Below are positions 12,620-58,840 of a stretch of DNA of 64,000 nt, piece by piece; within the stretch, counting starts at the first letter, position 1, and every line of letters begins with the position of its first letter. The notes beneath the pieces were generated by a model, which was given only the letters and a program-made list of their open reading frames with translations, was not told the DNA's origin and searched no databases. This DNA comes from Escherichia phage vB_EcoA_4HA11: the sequence record MN445184, one strand, 5' to 3'. Both the position numbers and the translations under genes were made by a program.

Positions 12620-13121
12620 TATTGTTCTCCAGTTCATAATCCCGTTCTTTAACATATTCATAAAGACGAGAAGTAATTCGGTCGGCATTGCCTGTGGTAT
12701 TCTTCACAACCCAACCGCTCGTAAGGACATCCATTTTATATCCACAATCATTATCTTGAAAATAACTTTTAATTGATTCAAGCCGACGACGTTTATGAAA
12801 ATATGGTATTAATTCGCCAATGATGACACAATCGGGATAATGCTTATCCAGAGTGTTTATGTCTCGTTGCACCCAAACCGGAATAACATCATCATCTTCA
12901 ATTGGGCTGTACGTTGGATCAACGATAATCACATTGAATCCATAATTCAATAAATCTTTAACTCCCAGCCACCCGAATTTCATATCGGACACGGTCATGG
13001 CGACATTCTTTATCCCCAATTTATTTGCAAAATCTGTGAGTAATACAAAAAAGTCCGTGTTTGCATCCGGATAATTAATTGCGAGTTGCTCCCCCACTTT
13101 ACTGAAACAGAACGCGTGCAT
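12597..13121 (-). CDS. Hypothetical protein
   Basis: 174-aa ORF, ATG at 13121. Confidence 0.45.
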   Translation of the reverse strand: MHAFCFSKVGEQLAINYPDANTDFFVLLTDFANKLGIKNVAMTVSDMKFGWLGVKDLLNYGFNVIIVDPTYSPIEDDDVIPVWVQRDINTLDKHYPDCVIIGELIPYFHKRRRLESIKSYFQDNDCGYKMDVLTSGWVVKNTTGNADRITSRLYEYVKERDYELENNNAKRRTR

Positions 13122-13134
13122 TTTCAGTCCTCGT

Positions 13135-13142
13135 TATAAATA
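13135..13142 (+). promoter_or_regulatory. T4-type late promoter TATAAATA
   Basis: Exact TATAAATA ~29 nt upstream of ATG 13171, with GTGGAG between. Confidence 0.6.
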
Positions 13143-13170: not shown

Positions 13171-13977
13171 ATGAATTTACCATCATTGCCCAAAACTGAG
13201 AGAACACATAAAAGTGATTTCTGGCCGACTGTGATCAAATACCGCGCCTTTACAGCAGGGCAACAGACCATGTTACTTCAGGTTGCTGATCCGAACACTC
13301 CTATGAGTGAGCGCGTGGCAACATTGGAGCAACTATTTGACAGTTGTGTTGATGCTGGCGTTCCCTTTAGTAAACTGCCAATCGGTGTTACTGAAGAAGT
13401 ATTTTTAAAGATGCGCTGTATATCTATCGGCGAGGTCATGAAGATACGTTACAAATGTAATAACAAAGTTCAAGCCGAAACCAATGAAGGTGGTGAAGAA
13501 CCAGTTTCTGGCCTTAAAGATTGTGGTCAAGAGCTTGTGTTACCGATCCCGCTCAATCAGGTAAAATGCGTGTCCCCAGAAGGCTTCAGGGAGACGTTTG
13601 ATCTACCAGGTGGTTATCATATAAAGATGCGCCAGCCGTCCTTCTCGGATGCCTCAGTGCTTAATGAAGCATCCTCTGTTGAACAAATGATTGCCACCTT
13701 TATCGATTGTCTGTATGACGACGATGGTCAGGTTTGGAAGGTGGAAAATCCGGCTGAACCTGGTATCGATCCAGAAGTTGCTAAAGAACGCCAACGCATT
13801 AAGGATGAATTTGTCAAATGGGTCGGGGACAATATTGAATCTGAGATTGTTCAGGACATTTCGAATGATTTCTTTAAAAAGATTCCGCGTATTCGTTACG
13901 CGACAAAAATTAAATGCCCTTCGTGTGGGAAAGAACACGAAGTCAAATTTAACAGTGTCACCGAGATTTTCATTTAA
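13171..13977 (+). CDS. Late protein, probably baseplate or virion-associated, with C-terminal CxxC
   Basis: 268 aa; late promoter and SD; followed by a hairpin terminator and then gp5/gp25. Confidence 0.55.
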   Translation: MNLPSLPKTERTHKSDFWPTVIKYRAFTAGQQTMLLQVADPNTPMSERVATLEQLFDSCVDAGVPFSKLPIGVTEEVFLKMRCISIGEVMKIRYKCNNKVQAETNEGGEEPVSGLKDCGQELVLPIPLNQVKCVSPEGFRETFDLPGGYHIKMRQPSFSDASVLNEASSVEQMIATFIDCLYDDDGQVWKVENPAEPGIDPEVAKERQRIKDEFVKWVGDNIESEIVQDISNDFFKKIPRIRYATKIKCPSCGKEHEVKFNSVTEIFI

Positions 13978-14126
13978 TTTTTGAAATTGATTTACTCTCC
14001 TATTTTGTGATGTGTGACGAATTAAAGGCACACGGCTATAGCATATTTGAAATCAGTGAATCGATGCCGTGGCATCTTGATTTGCTTACCGAGACACTGA
14101 AAATTAGATTGTCTAAGAAATCTTCC

Positions 14127-14154
14127 AACCCCACGTAATGTGGGGTTTTCTTTG
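14127..14154 (+). terminator. Rho-independent terminator
   Basis: AACCCCAC-GTAAT-GTGGGGTT followed by TTCTTTG. Confidence 0.6.
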
Positions 14155-14454
14155 CTTACCTGTATTACCGTTTAAGAAAGGATTGTTTAACCCGAAATTG
14201 CTATAACACCATTGTTCCTGATGTGAATGTTGTGTAAATCTGTTTTGAATTTGTTTTGAAACAAAAATAATGCTTTTCTACGCATGTTCTGAGGTGTACA
14301 GTATTTTCCTCGCCTTTATGCCTCCATGGCATTGGAATGGGACTGCCTGTCAAGGCGGTGTTACGAGCTTCAGCGAGTAGGAACGAAAAGAATAAAGGTT
14401 GAACGGAAGCAGAGCTTCCTATAATATATTATTCGACAGATTTCAAATCCCCGC

Positions 14455-14462
14455 CATAAATA
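14455..14462 (+). promoter_or_regulatory. Probable late promoter variant CATAAATA
   Basis: 7 of 8 match to TATAAATA, ~22 nt upstream of the gp5-like ATG. Confidence 0.35.
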
Positions 14463-14483
14463 TCACATGATTCTAATTGACTA

Positions 14484-16109
14484 ATGGGTTTCAATATGTT
14501 AGACAACTTGCGTTGGTTTTACGGGCGCGTTGAAGACGTGAATGATCCCGATCAAAACGGGCGCGTCGCAGTACGCATCTATGGGGTACACACGGAGGAT
14601 ACCACTCTCCTGCCTACAGAATTATTGCCTTGGGGTAAAATGCTTATGCCAGCATCTAACGCCTCCTCGGCAGGTTTAGGCTGGTCTCCGACGGGTATCA
14701 CTGTCGGCTCTGACGTTATGGGGTTTGCTTTGGATGAAGCATATCAGAACATCCGTATTGCATGGGTATGGCCAGCAGCAACACCAACAGATGGGTCAGA
14801 TACAAACCCATTGGCGCTGGGTCAGGTCGTTCAATCTATAGAAAGACAGAAGTATAATGCCGTCGAGAATGTTCCTGTTAAGATTGAGGATGAACCACAA
14901 CCGGATCCACAACCACCAGTAGACGGATATGATCCTGAGAAGTGGATGACCGTGGCTCGTGGGGAATTGGGTGTCAAAGAATATTCTGGTAAGTTCAATA
15001 ACAACCCAAGGATATTGGAATATCATAAGACAACTTCCCTGGGGGCGTCAGAAGATGAAGTTAGTTGGTGTGCGTCGTTTGTCGGATGGGTTCTGATACA
15101 GGCCGGATATACATCAACACGTTCTGCTTTGGCTCGTTCATATTTACAATGGGGGTCTCCTCTGTCAGAACCACGTTACGGCGCTGTTGTAGTGTTCCGG
15201 CGCGGGAACAACCCGACATTCGGTCACGTTGCATTCGTTCAGAAATTTGACGCCAACTACGTTTGGTGTATCGGGGGAAACCAATCCGATTCTGTGAAGG
15301 TGAGCCGTTTTAGCCGCTCATCCGTGTTGGGTTATCGTTGGCCAGGTCCAGCAACTACAGCTTCAGCAGCTCCGGCACAACAAAACGGTAAATGGTCTGA
15401 ACCTATTCCAGATCGTACCCCGAAAGTCCAAGAAACACCGCCTCCTTCTGGTCGTGTTCAGGATATTGACAACACAGGAGAGGTATCGGTTCCTTCGGCT
15501 GGAGGGTCTCGTTATCCATACAACAATGTTATGGCTTCTCGAGCTGGGCATATTATGGAGGTCGATGACACTCCAGGCGGGGAACGTTTGCATTGGATGC
15601 ACTCTTCTGGGTCTTACAAGCAAATGCTTCCTGACGGTGATGTTGTTAATAAATCAGTCAAAGATCATTATGACCTGACGATGTTCGACAAACGTTATTA
15701 TGTGGGGGGTGATCATAACCTGACAATTGGTGGGACTGAAGTACAGCGCAAGAAAGGAGAAGTTTACCACTTACACTCTTCTAACTATTCCAATGTGGTC
15801 GCTGGAACAGCGTTGATGAAATTTTCCCAATTGGCTGAGATACAGGCACAGAACGTGTTGCGTCTCATCTGTGAAATGTTGGAAGTTTCCAATACTTTGA
15901 AAGTGCCTAAAATACTGGCTAGTGAAATAGTTTGTGATAAGTTGTCGGTGGCGCAGACTATTGAAGGCAACATCAAATATGCTGAAGGCGCTGGCCGCGC
16001 CGCCTCACGTGCGGGGGCAACTCCTGTAACAACTACAGGCCCAGGTCCAATTGATATAAAACCGGAGTTAGAGGATAACGGCGGCAATTTTGGTGGTAAA
16101 GGCGCATGA
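14484..16109 (+). CDS. 5: Baseplate hub/central spike protein gp5-like with CHAP (NlpC/P60-type) peptidase domain
   Basis: 541 aa. N-terminal LRWFYGRVEDVNDPDQNGRVAVRIYGVHT resembles the gp5 OB domain; central WCASFVGWVL...GHVAFV is a Cys/His CHAP signature. Confidence 0.7.
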   Translation: MGFNMLDNLRWFYGRVEDVNDPDQNGRVAVRIYGVHTEDTTLLPTELLPWGKMLMPASNASSAGLGWSPTGITVGSDVMGFALDEAYQNIRIAWVWPAATPTDGSDTNPLALGQVVQSIERQKYNAVENVPVKIEDEPQPDPQPPVDGYDPEKWMTVARGELGVKEYSGKFNNNPRILEYHKTTSLGASEDEVSWCASFVGWVLIQAGYTSTRSALARSYLQWGSPLSEPRYGAVVVFRRGNNPTFGHVAFVQKFDANYVWCIGGNQSDSVKVSRFSRSSVLGYRWPGPATTASAAPAQQNGKWSEPIPDRTPKVQETPPPSGRVQDIDNTGEVSVPSAGGSRYPYNNVMASRAGHIMEVDDTPGGERLHWMHSSGSYKQMLPDGDVVNKSVKDHYDLTMFDKRYYVGGDHNLTIGGTEVQRKKGEVYHLHSSNYSNVVAGTALMKFSQLAEIQAQNVLRLICEMLEVSNTLKVPKILASEIVCDKLSVAQTIEGNIKYAEGAGRAASRAGATPVTTTGPGPIDIKPELEDNGGNFGGKGA

Positions 16110-27431: not shown

Positions 27432-29819
27432 TTATTTCAGACTAATCTGAAGATTACCACCCAGTGATTGTTCATATTCACTGTATGCACTATCACCATT
27501 ACTCATAGCCCATTCGTCGGATTGGCGAGCGCGTTCAAGAGTCATGAGATTTGGCTCGGTAGGATTATAGCCTTTAGATTTCGCGTCGTTGTATACCGTT
27601 TGCAGGTATTGGTTGGCACGGTTGATCTGATCCTTGAATTCACGATATGCTCCTTCGGTCGTATTGCGACGGAAAGTGATATCCCAAGCAACATTCAGAA
27701 CTGTACCATTACTGGCTGTGTATACCTGCCAATCCAGATCTCGTCCATTAGGAGCGCTGTCACGAATGGATTCGGCATAGGTGGCCAGATCACCTGCATT
27801 CTTACCTCCAGCAGCCTGATCTTTAGCCCGAGCCAAAGCATCAATGACTGCCGTGCGGTTCCTGGACTGTGCCAAATCTTTGTCTTGGAACATAATCGCG
27901 CCAAATTTACTGACAGTGATGTCATTCAGGAACAGATTGTTAGGGTTATAGTTTGATGAACTGAGATGGCTCAGTTGCGAAGCCGCGTCTTTCAGGCGTC
28001 GAGAAATCTCATCCAATGCATCTTGCACTGATTTGACAGACAACGAAATATCATATCCATTGCTGTCTACCACATTTCGACCATTTTCAGTCAACATGGT
28101 GGTGATGTTGGCTTTATTTCGATCAAAATCGTAAGTTACGTTGGTAACGAATCTTGCGGCTTGCAACTTGCTACCAGCAGGGAACTGGAAATCCCACGCT
28201 ACAGAGAAGCCATGAACGGTTTCACCAAAAAATTTAGCGTTGCTTGGTACTTTGATGTTTGCAGTGATCACTGCATTTTCACTGGAATTGGTGTTGATTT
28301 CACCAAAGATAGTACGCTCGTCGGAAGATTGAACCAACAGAGTATCTTTTCCACGCCAATCATAGCGGACTTTGAATGTTGTACGAGGAAACTCTTTCAT
28401 CAGATCAAGTTTGACCGCCTTGCCCAAGGTAAACCGATTCAGCAGAGCGTCAGCGATCTTCAATGTGAAAGAACCACAATCAACGTAAGAATATCCCTGA
28501 GAACGGGAAATTTTTTGAATCGGATATGGGGCACCATTGATAGGAACCACACGGCATTCTACTTCTCCCGCAAATTGAGAATCGGCTGCACGGGAGATTG
28601 CGCCCACTATTTCATAAGCGGCGTTTTTCACGTCTCCTTCCAGCATAAGTTGGTAATGACCAGACAAATCTGATACTACTTCTACAGAAAGTTTTCCGTT
28701 GACAATTCCCCAGAAATAAACCTGAATGTCCAGACCACCCGAAGTACGATATTTGCCCGCGCCGATTCGTGTTAGTTTTTCACCTGCATACATACCGACC
28801 TGTTGTGGAGCATATGTGTCTACAATCCCCAGAAGGCGAGCAATATAACCCTGATTTCGTAAGTCATCCACAGATCCTGTTTTTGGCAAAGTCTGCATGT
28901 CTATTTTTCCAGAATCTCCCGTCATCTCTTTCCAGAAGATGGACGACTGCTTGGTGAAATCATTCAGAATATTCACAGGGATCTGCGGTAATCCCAGTTG
29001 GCGTACAATAGCGTCTGGGGATTGAGCGCGGATCCGTTTCTCGTTCATGATACTACCAGCATACACACCAGGTTCATTCGCGTGAGGTGCGATATTGGCG
29101 GTAATAGTCCGCCCACGTTCTTTACCAGACCAGACCAGCATAGGCTGAGTATGATCAGCCTTGGTCAGAATCCAGCGAGAATCGGCATTTATGGCTTGGC
29201 TCAAATCATCCATGTCACCTTGTAGTGCGGCGTCACGAGCAGCCTGGTCAGGAACGTCGCCGACTTTGTCTGGGTCGTCCCAAGTCACGCCTTTCATTTT
29301 CGGACCATCGAATACCTGAGCAGGATCCTTACCTTTACGCACAACCCATACGAATGCACGATCAGGGATAGGGGTATACGTCAGGTCCATGACATTGAGC
29401 TTCTGCTTCAGGCCGGACTGACGGATGATCTTCGGCAGGAGGGTAACACCACGTTCCAATGCTTTCTTGGAGAAGTTAATTGCAAAGCCGTCAATGGTTT
29501 TCCCCAAAGGCGTCGCCATGAATTGCTTTGTTGCTTCGATCATGGATGCGATGACACGCATTGGGTTTTTGAAACGACCGATTGCGTCTGGATAGGTCGA
29601 ACCACGTTTCTGGCCTATGAAGACCTGACGAACGTTCTTGCCCAGCCCCTGCGGGGTATAAAATTGGATGCGGAATTCTTTTTCGTCTTCATCAACAAAT
29701 GTGAAGAAAATGTCACCAGCGTTCTTCTTACCGAATGTCAATTCATACGGGGATGAGTTAAACGCTTCGTCTAATTGTTTAGACTCTTCAAGAAAGTTCA
29801 AGAAAGATGGGATGGCCAT
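27432..29819 (-). CDS. Large hypothetical protein (795 aa)
   Basis: Long uninterrupted ORF; no catalytic motif recognised. Confidence 0.55.
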   Translation of the reverse strand: MAIPSFLNFLEESKQLDEAFNSSPYELTFGKKNAGDIFFTFVDEDEKEFRIQFYTPQGLGKNVRQVFIGQKRGSTYPDAIGRFKNPMRVIASMIEATKQFMATPLGKTIDGFAINFSKKALERGVTLLPKIIRQSGLKQKLNVMDLTYTPIPDRAFVWVVRKGKDPAQVFDGPKMKGVTWDDPDKVGDVPDQAARDAALQGDMDDLSQAINADSRWILTKADHTQPMLVWSGKERGRTITANIAPHANEPGVYAGSIMNEKRIRAQSPDAIVRQLGLPQIPVNILNDFTKQSSIFWKEMTGDSGKIDMQTLPKTGSVDDLRNQGYIARLLGIVDTYAPQQVGMYAGEKLTRIGAGKYRTSGGLDIQVYFWGIVNGKLSVEVVSDLSGHYQLMLEGDVKNAAYEIVGAISRAADSQFAGEVECRVVPINGAPYPIQKISRSQGYSYVDCGSFTLKIADALLNRFTLGKAVKLDLMKEFPRTTFKVRYDWRGKDTLLVQSSDERTIFGEINTNSSENAVITANIKVPSNAKFFGETVHGFSVAWDFQFPAGSKLQAARFVTNVTYDFDRNKANITTMLTENGRNVVDSNGYDISLSVKSVQDALDEISRRLKDAASQLSHLSSSNYNPNNLFLNDITVSKFGAIMFQDKDLAQSRNRTAVIDALARAKDQAAGGKNAGDLATYAESIRDSAPNGRDLDWQVYTASNGTVLNVAWDITFRRNTTEGAYREFKDQINRANQYLQTVYNDAKSKGYNPTEPNLMTLERARQSDEWAMSNGDSAYSEYEQSLGGNLQISLK

Positions 29820-58517: not shown

Positions 58518-58840
58518 AATATAGTGGGGTTCAAGTCATATTTGACGCAAATTAGTATCGCGTGTTTGTAGTTATAGAACAAGTGATAAATTGCCCTACG
58601 CGCGATAAATAAATGCCTGACGGCATTTATAATATTCTGTTTTAATAAAACCTTTCTTTATCAGTCTACTCGCTTCGCTCGTGATAATACTCGTTGCTCG
58701 CAAAGCTCACAACTCGTATATTACGCACGGATTGTTCAACAAGAAAGCGATTTTTATTCAACAATTAAAATATTTTATTTGGTCTAAACAGAGCATGACA
58801 TTATTATGTAGCCAAGTTTGCTAACACGCGAGAAATACAT

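Follow-up and report, generated by a model that had tools for sequence, protein, structure and literature searches.

The closest described counterparts of the region analysed here come mainly from bacteriophage T4. The region is a gap of about 500 bp between a gp26-like and a gp5-like baseplate gene of Escherichia phage vB_EcoA_4HA11 (record MN445184), and it contains a structured element whose base pairs covary among related phages; coordinates refer throughout to the window, the 64,000-nt stretch of DNA that was analysed. In T4, gene 51 lies next to gene 26, on its upstream side, and encodes a protein of ~249 amino acids, while the replication origin oriE lies beside gene 5 and the leader of gene 32 carries a compact H-type pseudoknot. 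T4 middle promoters have, 11–13 bp upstream of TAnnnT, a MotA box that reads (a/t)(a/t)(a/t)TGCTTtA and has its centre at −30. T4 gene 26 also has an internal AUU start, for gp26*. The put RNA of phage HK022 is a processive antitermination signal, and the elements known as PeSLs number in dozens. PeSLs consist of a stem-loop and a −35/−10 early promoter and occur in T4-like phages, mainly in hyperplastic regions (PMC2839356, PMC4122927). T4 oriE uses an early promoter (PMC3016281), and an accommodated ribosome-binding site (RBS) at the T4 26–25 junction is the subject of a paper cited in PMC3014915.

The locus shares individual traits with several of these systems. As in PeSLs, a stem-loop is directly followed by a sigma-70-type −10 box, twice in the gap, and the sequence is a repeated, recombining intergenic one; in contrast to PeSLs the copies number no more than three and lie in core regions, and a 60-nt pseudoknotted domain with G·A hairpins stands between the two cassettes. 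The pseudoknot resembles that of the T4 gene 32 leader in being short and two-stemmed (5 bp and 4 bp, with a 1-nt loop 1), in its AU-rich flanks and in its occurrence in a T4-related phage, but it does not lie in the leader of an autoregulated gene, has no sequence similarity to it and is followed by two more hairpins. The 3′ end of T4 gene 26 is known for unusual translation initiation; here, by contrast, AUU or AUC shares a base with the stop codon and is the first codon of a separate gene in the −1 frame. The late promoters are of the type at which T4 transcription starts ~6–8 nt downstream and depends on gp55, gp33 and gp45; of these three proteins, only a homologue of gp45 was found in the window. 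The octamer upstream of gp5, CATAAATA, differs in beginning with C. Judged by the comparisons described below, the family of structured elements is not an Rfam family, an HDV-like or a hammerhead ribozyme, a MotA promoter or a coding gene, and it resembles phage intergenic regulatory RNAs, H-type pseudoknots and terminator/promoter cassettes only in general terms.

Overall organization of the gap

The genome that carries the gap is a Kuttervirus of the family Ackermannviridae. The stretch at 13978–14483 is 100% identical to Salmonella phage SeSz-1 and 96–99.8% identical to many other Kuttervirus genomes, among them Det7, CBA120 and Vi01. It is bounded by a gp26-like baseplate hub gene (13171–13977, + strand; PF12322, E-value 1e-51; phrog_150) and by a gp5-like hub/lysozyme gene with a CHAP domain (14496–16109, + strand), whose conserved start is ATG 14496. 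As first delimited the gap is 506 bp long; measured from the gp26 stop to the conserved gp5 start it is 518 bp. About 450 nt of it are retained at 72–75% identity in Agtrevirus, Limestonevirus and Taipeivirus, with partial conservation in Miltonvirus. In these alignments the conservation is far above chance expectation, and since it extends over ~450 nt across genera, it points to selection along most of the length of the gap.

The explanation that we favour is that the gap is the junction of two late transcription units and is occupied over nearly all of its length, by a small gene, a terminator, a putative non-coding RNA and a late promoter of gp5. Taken jointly, as a single proposition, these four parts make up an account that we hold to be somewhat on the probable side. 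An earlier note on this DNA had described an unusually long (~500 bp) non-coding region and had suggested a small RNA, very small peptides or a regulatory hub; a missed protein gene of fewer than 60 amino acids was among the outcomes that it named as counting against its view. The gap is real, and the list of open reading frames (ORFs) bears out that none of 60 amino acids or more lies within 13978–14483. However, a shorter conserved gene (13977–14138) is present, so that the first third of the gap, ~160 nt, is protein-coding. For the remaining ~340 nt the idea of a small RNA or regulatory region survives, in the form of a conserved late promoter and of a covarying, RNA-like element at 14318–14378.

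A structured core upstream of gp5

The structured core comprises 61 nt (14318–14378, + strand), along which a first hairpin (H1) and an H-type pseudoknot are followed by two further hairpins, H2 and H3, the last of them with tandem G·A pairs. H1 has five base pairs (14318–14322 with 14328–14332) and the loop UCCAU, from which CCAU (14324–14327) pairs with the AUGG (14337–14340) of the linker GGAAUGG to form the pseudoknot. H2 has six base pairs (14342–14347 with 14354–14359). In H3, CGAGC (14364–14368) faces GCGAG (14373–14377) in the arrangement Y-GAGC-loop-GCGA-R, with tandem G·A/A·G pairs.

The alignment of the core contains 20 distinct sequences, drawn from this site (copy A) and from a second one in the same genomes (copy B, see below), and covers 17 pairs, or 340 cells. 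Standard pairs are found in every cell (340/340), with changes on both sides at five pairs, whereas controls in which the 3′ partner was slid by 1–3 columns were 27–56% paired and had almost no covariation. Each helix contributes a compensatory change: AU/UA to CG/AU in H1, between copy A and copy B; A-U to C-G in the pseudoknot, in Taipeivirus copies A and B and in CRW-SP2, at positions that were left free in the search pattern; C-G to U-A in H2 of Taipeivirus copy A; and C-G to U-A in H3 of the Aglimvirinae. Additional Taipeivirus B copies preserve H2, with C-G replacing both U·G and U-A, and have a bulge besides. RNAalifold recovers H1, H2 and H3 independently, and a covariance model built from the core (R1) scores 81.6 bits at 14318–14378.

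In the core, and likewise in the additional hairpin P0 described below, a pair that has changed on one side only is always G·U, and never A·C, when read on the strand of the downstream gene; one U·G pair is invariant. The fold is thus strand-specific, which argues for an RNA (or for single-stranded DNA with the sense of that gene) and against a site recognized in duplex DNA. A protein-coding function of the core is excluded, because variation is flat with respect to codon position (15/13/14) and 1-nt indels occur at three places.

Comparison with known RNA classes gave no assignment. There are no transfer RNA or transfer-messenger RNA genes in the 64-kb window, nor does any Rfam family reach its gathering threshold anywhere in it. 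With Rfam 15 the best score in the gap was 22 bits, for a plant small nucleolar RNA model with a gathering score of 34 (E-value 0.6), and the two other loci that carry the element gave nothing. Ribozymes of the hepatitis delta virus (HDV) type are defined by two nested pseudoknots and by a catalytic C that is conserved in J4/2. A resemblance in GGAAUGGGAC prompted the comparison, but the linker after H2 reads UGUUA, UGUGA or UCUUCA and so has no C in common, GAGC is preceded by C in some sequences and by U in others, and no HDV family of Rfam is matched. The hammerhead core, CUGANGA ... GAAA flanking stem II, is approached by CUGAUGAGCGAAGCGAAU in one lineage only (CUGAUGA-GC GAA GC-GAAU), with GUUACGA in Kuttervirus and again no Rfam match. 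H2 recalls the repeat hairpin of type I-F CRISPR systems, but an A-to-G difference in its 3′ strand argues against a mimic. A long-range closing helix (UUGUUCCUG/UAGGAACGA) suggested by a single-sequence fold is absent from other lineages and from the consensus fold.

Further copies and distribution of the element

A 26-nt degenerate pattern of the core was searched in IMG/VR and matched 35 sites, all on Ackermannviridae contigs of ~155 kb and mostly two per genome. Copy A lies upstream of gp5, and copy B upstream of a gene for a baseplate wedge protein, in an intergenic region from which transcription diverges. A weak match of R1 to the minus strand at 58668–58703 led to a third locus, copy C (58669–58719, − strand), which is situated upstream of the gp45 clamp gene and consists of P0 and an H3-type hairpin (CGAGC GAA GCGAG). 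P0 of copy C is a hairpin with a double tandem-G·A motif, AUACGAGUUG UGAGC UUU GCGAG CAACGAGUAU. It also precedes the core in copy B, and in seven distinct sequences of copies B and C its 11 Watson–Crick or wobble pairs are formed in 77 of 77 cells, four of them with compensatory changes. The family is accordingly modular, with core and H3 at locus A, P0, core and H3 at locus B, P0 and H3 at locus C, and two G·A hairpins without a core at site A of Miltonvirus.

Scans with a regular expression, with the pattern and with the model all find exactly three loci per genome. Each element is co-oriented with the gene downstream of it and is followed by a GC hairpin, which at locus C lies between the element and gp45 (58609–58630, − strand). 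The gp45 start that is conserved across genera is ATG 58502 (− strand; MQEITL...); the mechanically listed ORF begins at TTG 58517. The alignments show a strand-specific, covarying fold at all three loci.

The elements are conserved in Kuttervirus, Agtrevirus, Limestonevirus, Taipeivirus and a CRW-SP2-like lineage, and copy C, which is conserved in 272 phage records, is almost never annotated. Searches beyond these phages returned little. In 596 Gb of bacterial genomes only three pattern matches were found (14–26 bits), which we attribute to chance; no similar sequence exists in 5,426 E. coli genomes, and mimicry of a host sequence was rejected; a metagenome search for wider diversity gave only two real matches, both of known type. 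The structure is well supported, as judged from these comparisons, within a narrow clade. There are signs in the aligned sequences that copies A and B exchange sequence by gene conversion.

Two individual sequences deserve mention at this point. Copy A of Mansal carries part of a hairpin insertion that is typical of copy B, and in IMG/VR contig 3300045988_107072 the identical H2 variant (CUGCCCGCAUAGGGCGG) is present in both copies.

Possible functions of the elements

At each locus a TATAAT-like box lies 105–135 nt upstream and the GC hairpin 20–50 nt downstream of the element; beyond the GC hairpin, a late promoter is present for gp5 and another for the wedge gene. On account of this arrangement we favour discrete RNAs of ~200 nt, and our best guess is that the elements are small structured non-coding RNAs. 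At locus A the upstream box is TTGCTATAAC (14198–14207, + strand), an extended −10 promoter-like box without a −35, for which transcription is predicted to start near 14214. It reads TGcTATAAC here and TGtTATAAT in AG3 and belongs to a block, GAAATTGYTATAAY, that is conserved in all genera; the consensus promoter scan requires a −35 and for that reason does not list it. We infer that this box is a promoter, that the fold is made as RNA from it and that this RNA ends at the hairpin that follows and acts in trans. In detail, the host sigma-70 RNA polymerase would start at 14198–14207 and make a ~200-nt non-coding RNA with an AU-rich 5′ half and a 3′ half composed of the H-type pseudoknot, the second hairpin and the tandem-G·A hairpin. 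The RNA would end at the hairpin GGAAGC-AGA-GCTTCC (14405–14419, + strand), which is directly followed by TATAAT (14420–14425). Two of the six pairs of this hairpin covary (GGAAGC/GCTTCC, GGATGC/GCATCC, GGCTGC/GCAGCC), its tail is a mixture of U and A, and the terminator scan makes no call; it is a candidate for the 3′ end of the RNA and/or for a terminator-plus-promoter cassette. The recurring G·A hairpins may serve to bind proteins, and the structured RNAs may have a regulatory role or act as decoys.

Between the putative promoter and the core lies an AT-rich stretch (14214–14317, + strand; GC 0.25–0.32 over 14220–14309) with the conserved blocks TTGTTCCTGA, TTGAAT, AAAAA and CTTTTCTAC-N16-TACAGT (14273–14303). 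It has neither codon periodicity (39/41/38) nor conserved secondary structure. The short direct repeats that had been noticed earlier, GTTTTGAA, are indeed present in two copies (14242–14249 and 14253–14260), which fold into a local hairpin, but the pair is specific to Kuttervirus and other genera have a single TTGAAT. The box CTTTTCTAC-N16-TAnnnT recurs at copy B with identical spacing, and at locus C its equivalent abuts P0. As a genome-wide class of promoter the box was rejected, since its four matches compare with an expectation of 1.7 and are convincing at loci A and B only. The same applies to a MotA box, which the earlier note had seen in ATGCTTTT (14270–14277). This sequence is in the window but is not conserved even among Kuttervirus, where only some genomes have TGCTT (ATCCTTTT, ATACTTTT, CCATTTTT and TCGTTTTT elsewhere), and its end is separated from the nearest TAnnnT (TACAGT) by 20 bp, not by 11–13 bp.

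Several observations weigh against discrete RNAs or limit the support for the fold itself. The extended −10 box lacks a −35 and has lost its TG in some lineages; the U-tails of the downstream hairpins are modest, and the terminator scan calls none on the strand of the element. The z-score of single-sequence folding is unremarkable (−1.3 to −1.9), the covariation amounts to few independent events among closely related phages, and gene conversion between the copies inflates the counts of paired cells. Since a literature search for transcriptomes of Ackermannviridae or Kuttervirus found none, the promoter, the ends of the RNA and its independence from the gp5 messenger RNA (mRNA) are all deduced.

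The alternative that survives best, although we think it unlikely, is that the elements are cis-acting leaders of transcripts made in the early or middle phase, which would continue into gp5, the wedge gene and gp45. There they would serve in put-like antitermination, or as 5′ stabilizers or processing sites by which polymerase or mRNA gets past the hairpin that comes next. The succession of promoter-like box, structured element, GC hairpin and gene, on the strand of the gene at all three loci, is in keeping with this, as is the view of the hairpins as weak terminators; in addition, gp45 requires expression before the late phase, yet has a hairpin just upstream. Against these points stand the late promoters of gp5 and the wedge gene, which lie downstream of the element, and the lack of a match to put-like or other antiterminator families. 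It is conceivable, but likewise doubtful, that the three modular structured RNAs of each genome belong to a hitherto undescribed family and form a coordinated switch (for example by put-like antitermination or protein titration) that times baseplate and clamp expression, or that they prime replication.

Distinctly less probable is the explanation of the three loci as replication origins of the T4 type, at which a host-type promoter fires into an AT-rich region and the R-loop transcript primes the leading strand. Like oriE, oriF and oriG, locus A has a promoter-like box followed by an AT-rich region (~90 bp at 25–32% GC), and like oriE it lies beside gene 5. Two of the three loci are at a transcriptional divergence, and locus A is ~1.2 kb from one, where GC skew (in 2-kb bins) changes from negative at 12–14 kb to positive at 14–16 kb. 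This change is however uninformative, as it coincides with the switch of gene strand from minus to plus at ~13.1 kb. Moreover, R-loop primers are not characterized by RNA helices that covary, are specific to one strand and lie in a GC-rich domain, and no requirement for a conserved RNA fold is known for T4 origins. They also share no sequence motif (PMC3016281).

We regard as very improbable that the elements act at the level of DNA, either as PeSL-type recombining terminator/promoter cassettes or as palindromic operators for a dimeric DNA-binding protein. The double occurrence of stem-loop and promoter-like box in the gap (terminator and extended −10; hairpin and TATAAT) would suit a cassette, as would the exchange of sequence between copies seen in the Mansal insertion and in the H2 variant common to copies A and B of one genome. 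But the copies number only three and lie in conserved core regions that are not hyperplastic, and their architecture, with pseudoknot and G·A pairs, is complex; operators conserve bases and do not covary, and the G·U wobbles, which are invariant or confined to one strand, would be mismatches on the opposite strand. Such a cassette fits the data poorly, and so does a micro-peptide of ~20 amino acids (MPPWHW[N/K]G[T/A][A/V]C...) encoded by the core from the ATG of H1, which we rejected as next to impossible on codon-position variation and reading-frame comparison: its frame is open in every copy A of the six lineages examined, with the first 11 residues similar, and small ORFs are annotated here in some records, but it has no Shine–Dalgarno (SD) sequence and no codon periodicity, 1-nt indels scramble its C-terminal half, copy B has CAG for ATG and L-R for H-W while keeping every base pair, and each variable site is a covarying pair or an unpaired position.

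A small gp51-like gene downstream of gp26

The first third of the gap contains a small gene of 53 codons (IFEIDLLSYFVMCDELKAHGYSIFEISESMPWHLDLLTETLKIRLSKKSSNPT; 13977–14138, + strand), recognized by its codon periodicity and PHROG matches as that of a putative gp51-like hub assembly factor. Its first codon overlaps the gp26 stop by one base, and there is a conserved internal ATG at 14010. The junction of stop and start reads TAATG in the Aglimvirinae, TAATT in Kuttervirus (including the present genome) and Taipeivirus, and TGATC in Miltonvirus. Among 28 aligned sequences, the variable columns at codon positions 1/2/3 number 17/10/31 for 14010–14120 and 2/2/6 in the 11 codons that precede the internal ATG (13977–14009), while the following 160 nt are flat (39/41/38). 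The alignment shows a coding signature in the small gene. In the ATT-led extension, Kuttervirus and Taipeivirus differ only synonymously (CTC/TTA, TAT/TAC, TTT/TTC), which indicates that the extension is translated in these genera too. Coding also accounts for the near-palindrome GATGCC-GT-GGCATC that had been singled out in the earlier description. It is present at 14063–14076, where it corresponds to the codons S-M-P-W-H-L, and the variation at its centre is confined to a third position where it is synonymous (CCG/CCC/CCA/CCT), so that no structure is needed to explain its conservation.

The 53-residue translation matches phrog_9633 from end to end (E-value 2e-36), a family whose members are stand-alone proteins of 49 residues. 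The gp51 family phrog_634 ("baseplate hub assembly catalyst") is matched by all nine members of the small-protein family (best E-value 5e-8), the protein of the window itself aligning with positions 60–107 of the 121-position profile at E-values of 0.0016–0.004. From these matches the product is probably a gp51-like hub-assembly protein. The gene adjoins gp26, as gene 51 does in T4, but is downstream of it, and the protein of 42–53 residues corresponds only to that part of the profile. Several relatives annotate a hypothetical protein of 42–49 amino acids at this position (DET7_92, AG3 orf00083, phiD3 HQ80_0058, LIMEstone1 ORF060; also PMBT18). LIMEstone1 ORF060 is not marked as a virion protein, while gp26 and gp5 are, which by analogy fits a role in assembly. 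Only four clusters among 5.8 billion proteins make up this tiny family, and searches of Pfam, NCBIfam and the PDB with the small protein found no relative. Gp26 homologues that are very distant (25% identity, on small IMG/VR contigs) have a small homologous ORF just downstream (MHHHKYSLSEIENMMPFERQVYIALLMQYLEQLKQEQKQ). The gene order of gp26 followed by a mini-gp51 may be ancient.

No SD sequence is found upstream of either 13977 or 14010, the −1 frame upstream of the small gene is open for only 4–12 codons, and there is no slippery heptamer of the form X_XXY_YYZ. For these reasons we suppose that the gene would be translated by termination–reinitiation at the gp26 stop, from AUG in the Aglimvirinae and from the near-cognate AUU (Kuttervirus, Taipeivirus) or AUC (Miltonvirus). 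The internal ATG at 14010 counts against this proposal, as it is conserved and could itself be where the protein begins. The small ORF would also be reached if ribosomes shifted into the −1 frame towards the end of gp26, which would then be extended at its C-terminus. Relative to gp26 the ORF does lie in the −1 frame, without an SD sequence, its first codon is not ATG in three of four lineages, and the junction sequence ATTTTCATYTRAT is highly conserved. However, besides the short upstream frame and the missing heptamer, the Aglimvirinae have a classic TAATG stop–start overlap and the PHROG members stand alone at 49 residues, and we judge a frameshift fusion quite unlikely compared with the reinitiation proposed above.

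Late promoters, terminator and gene starts

A perfect late promoter of the T4 type, TATAAATA, is located at 13135–13142 (+ strand), 29 nt upstream of the gp26 start codon, which has the SD sequence GGAG. This promoter sits in a 50-bp divergent gap, beside a minus-strand gene that ends at 13121. The small gene is followed by an intrinsic terminator (14127–14154, + strand) with a 9-bp stem that includes five GC pairs and the tail TTCTTTGCTT; the hairpin extends over 14127–14147 and the T-tail to 14154, in agreement with the terminator of the earlier note. It has the form expected, namely a GC-rich stem-loop directly followed by a U-tract downstream of a gene, and the stop codon of the small gene (TAA, 14136–14138) is located in its loop. 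The position of the terminator is kept in five lineages with compensatory changes in the stem (CCCCAC/GTGGGG, CCCCGC/GCGGGG, TCCCGC/GCGGGA), and the Magnus and LIMEstone1 records annotate a terminator at the equivalent site. Promoter and terminator together define a late operon of gp26 and the small gene, whose mRNA would start at the octamer (13135), also encode the 53-codon gene and end at 14127–14154.

The late promoter of gp5, CATAAATA (14455–14462, + strand), agrees with the T4 consensus at seven of eight positions. It was already recognized in the earlier note as a late-promoter variant and is conserved in every genus examined; its ATAAATA (14456–14462) is invariant in 12 of 12 representative sequences from five lineages. 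The promoter is separated from ATG 14496 by 33 nt, within the ~30–40 nt typical of such octamers upstream of late genes and in an arrangement like that at gp26, and the LIMEstone1 record has a putative late promoter at the equivalent site. As the heptamer ATAAATA is not over-represented in the window (6 observed, ~10.7 expected), the case for a late promoter rests on its position and conservation. The gp5 start that is conserved in all genera is ATG 14496 (ATGTTAGA...), preceded by a weak SD sequence (GGG, 14487–14489), and not ATG 14484. The upstream ATG is used in the PMBT18 and Det7 records and in the mechanical ORF list, while Mansal annotates the equivalent of ATG 14496 together with an RBS; where the upstream ATG was chosen, gp5 is set to start 12 nt too early. 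We expect gp5 to be transcribed late from 14455 and translated from ATG 14496.

Relation to other records

Positions 1–202 and 202–898 of the window both align with 91000–91697 of SeSz-1 (99%), with ~200 bp aligned twice, so the left end is not collinear; the right end of the window stops short of position 28500 of SeSz-1. Either the phage is a close relative of SeSz-1 or there is a local repeat or indel. Two records named 'Enterococcus phage Efm 3-10' (OR844942.1 and OR844944.1, UNVERIFIED_ORG) contain Kuttervirus sequence at 98–99% identity and are probably contaminant contigs or mislabelled.

Significance

Small gene, terminator and late promoter are all of an ordinary kind, and some relatives have them annotated already. 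The gp51-like gene, although conserved, is left unannotated in many deposited genomes, and its apparent AUU or AUC start would be a case of non-AUG re-initiation by translational coupling. Biocontrol and phage therapy make wide use of Ackermannviridae such as Vi1, CBA120, Det7, LIMEstone and the Klebsiella Taipeiviruses, while the regulation of their genes is known only by analogy to T4. The three conserved, covarying and unannotated elements per genome mark a regulatory layer that lies outside any description of the family. If the elements are RNAs, as we favour, they would constitute a tractable new family of phage RNAs with a small pseudoknot; if they are instead origins or antiterminators, they would provide a first handle on replication or on the control of pre-late transcription in the Ackermannviridae.

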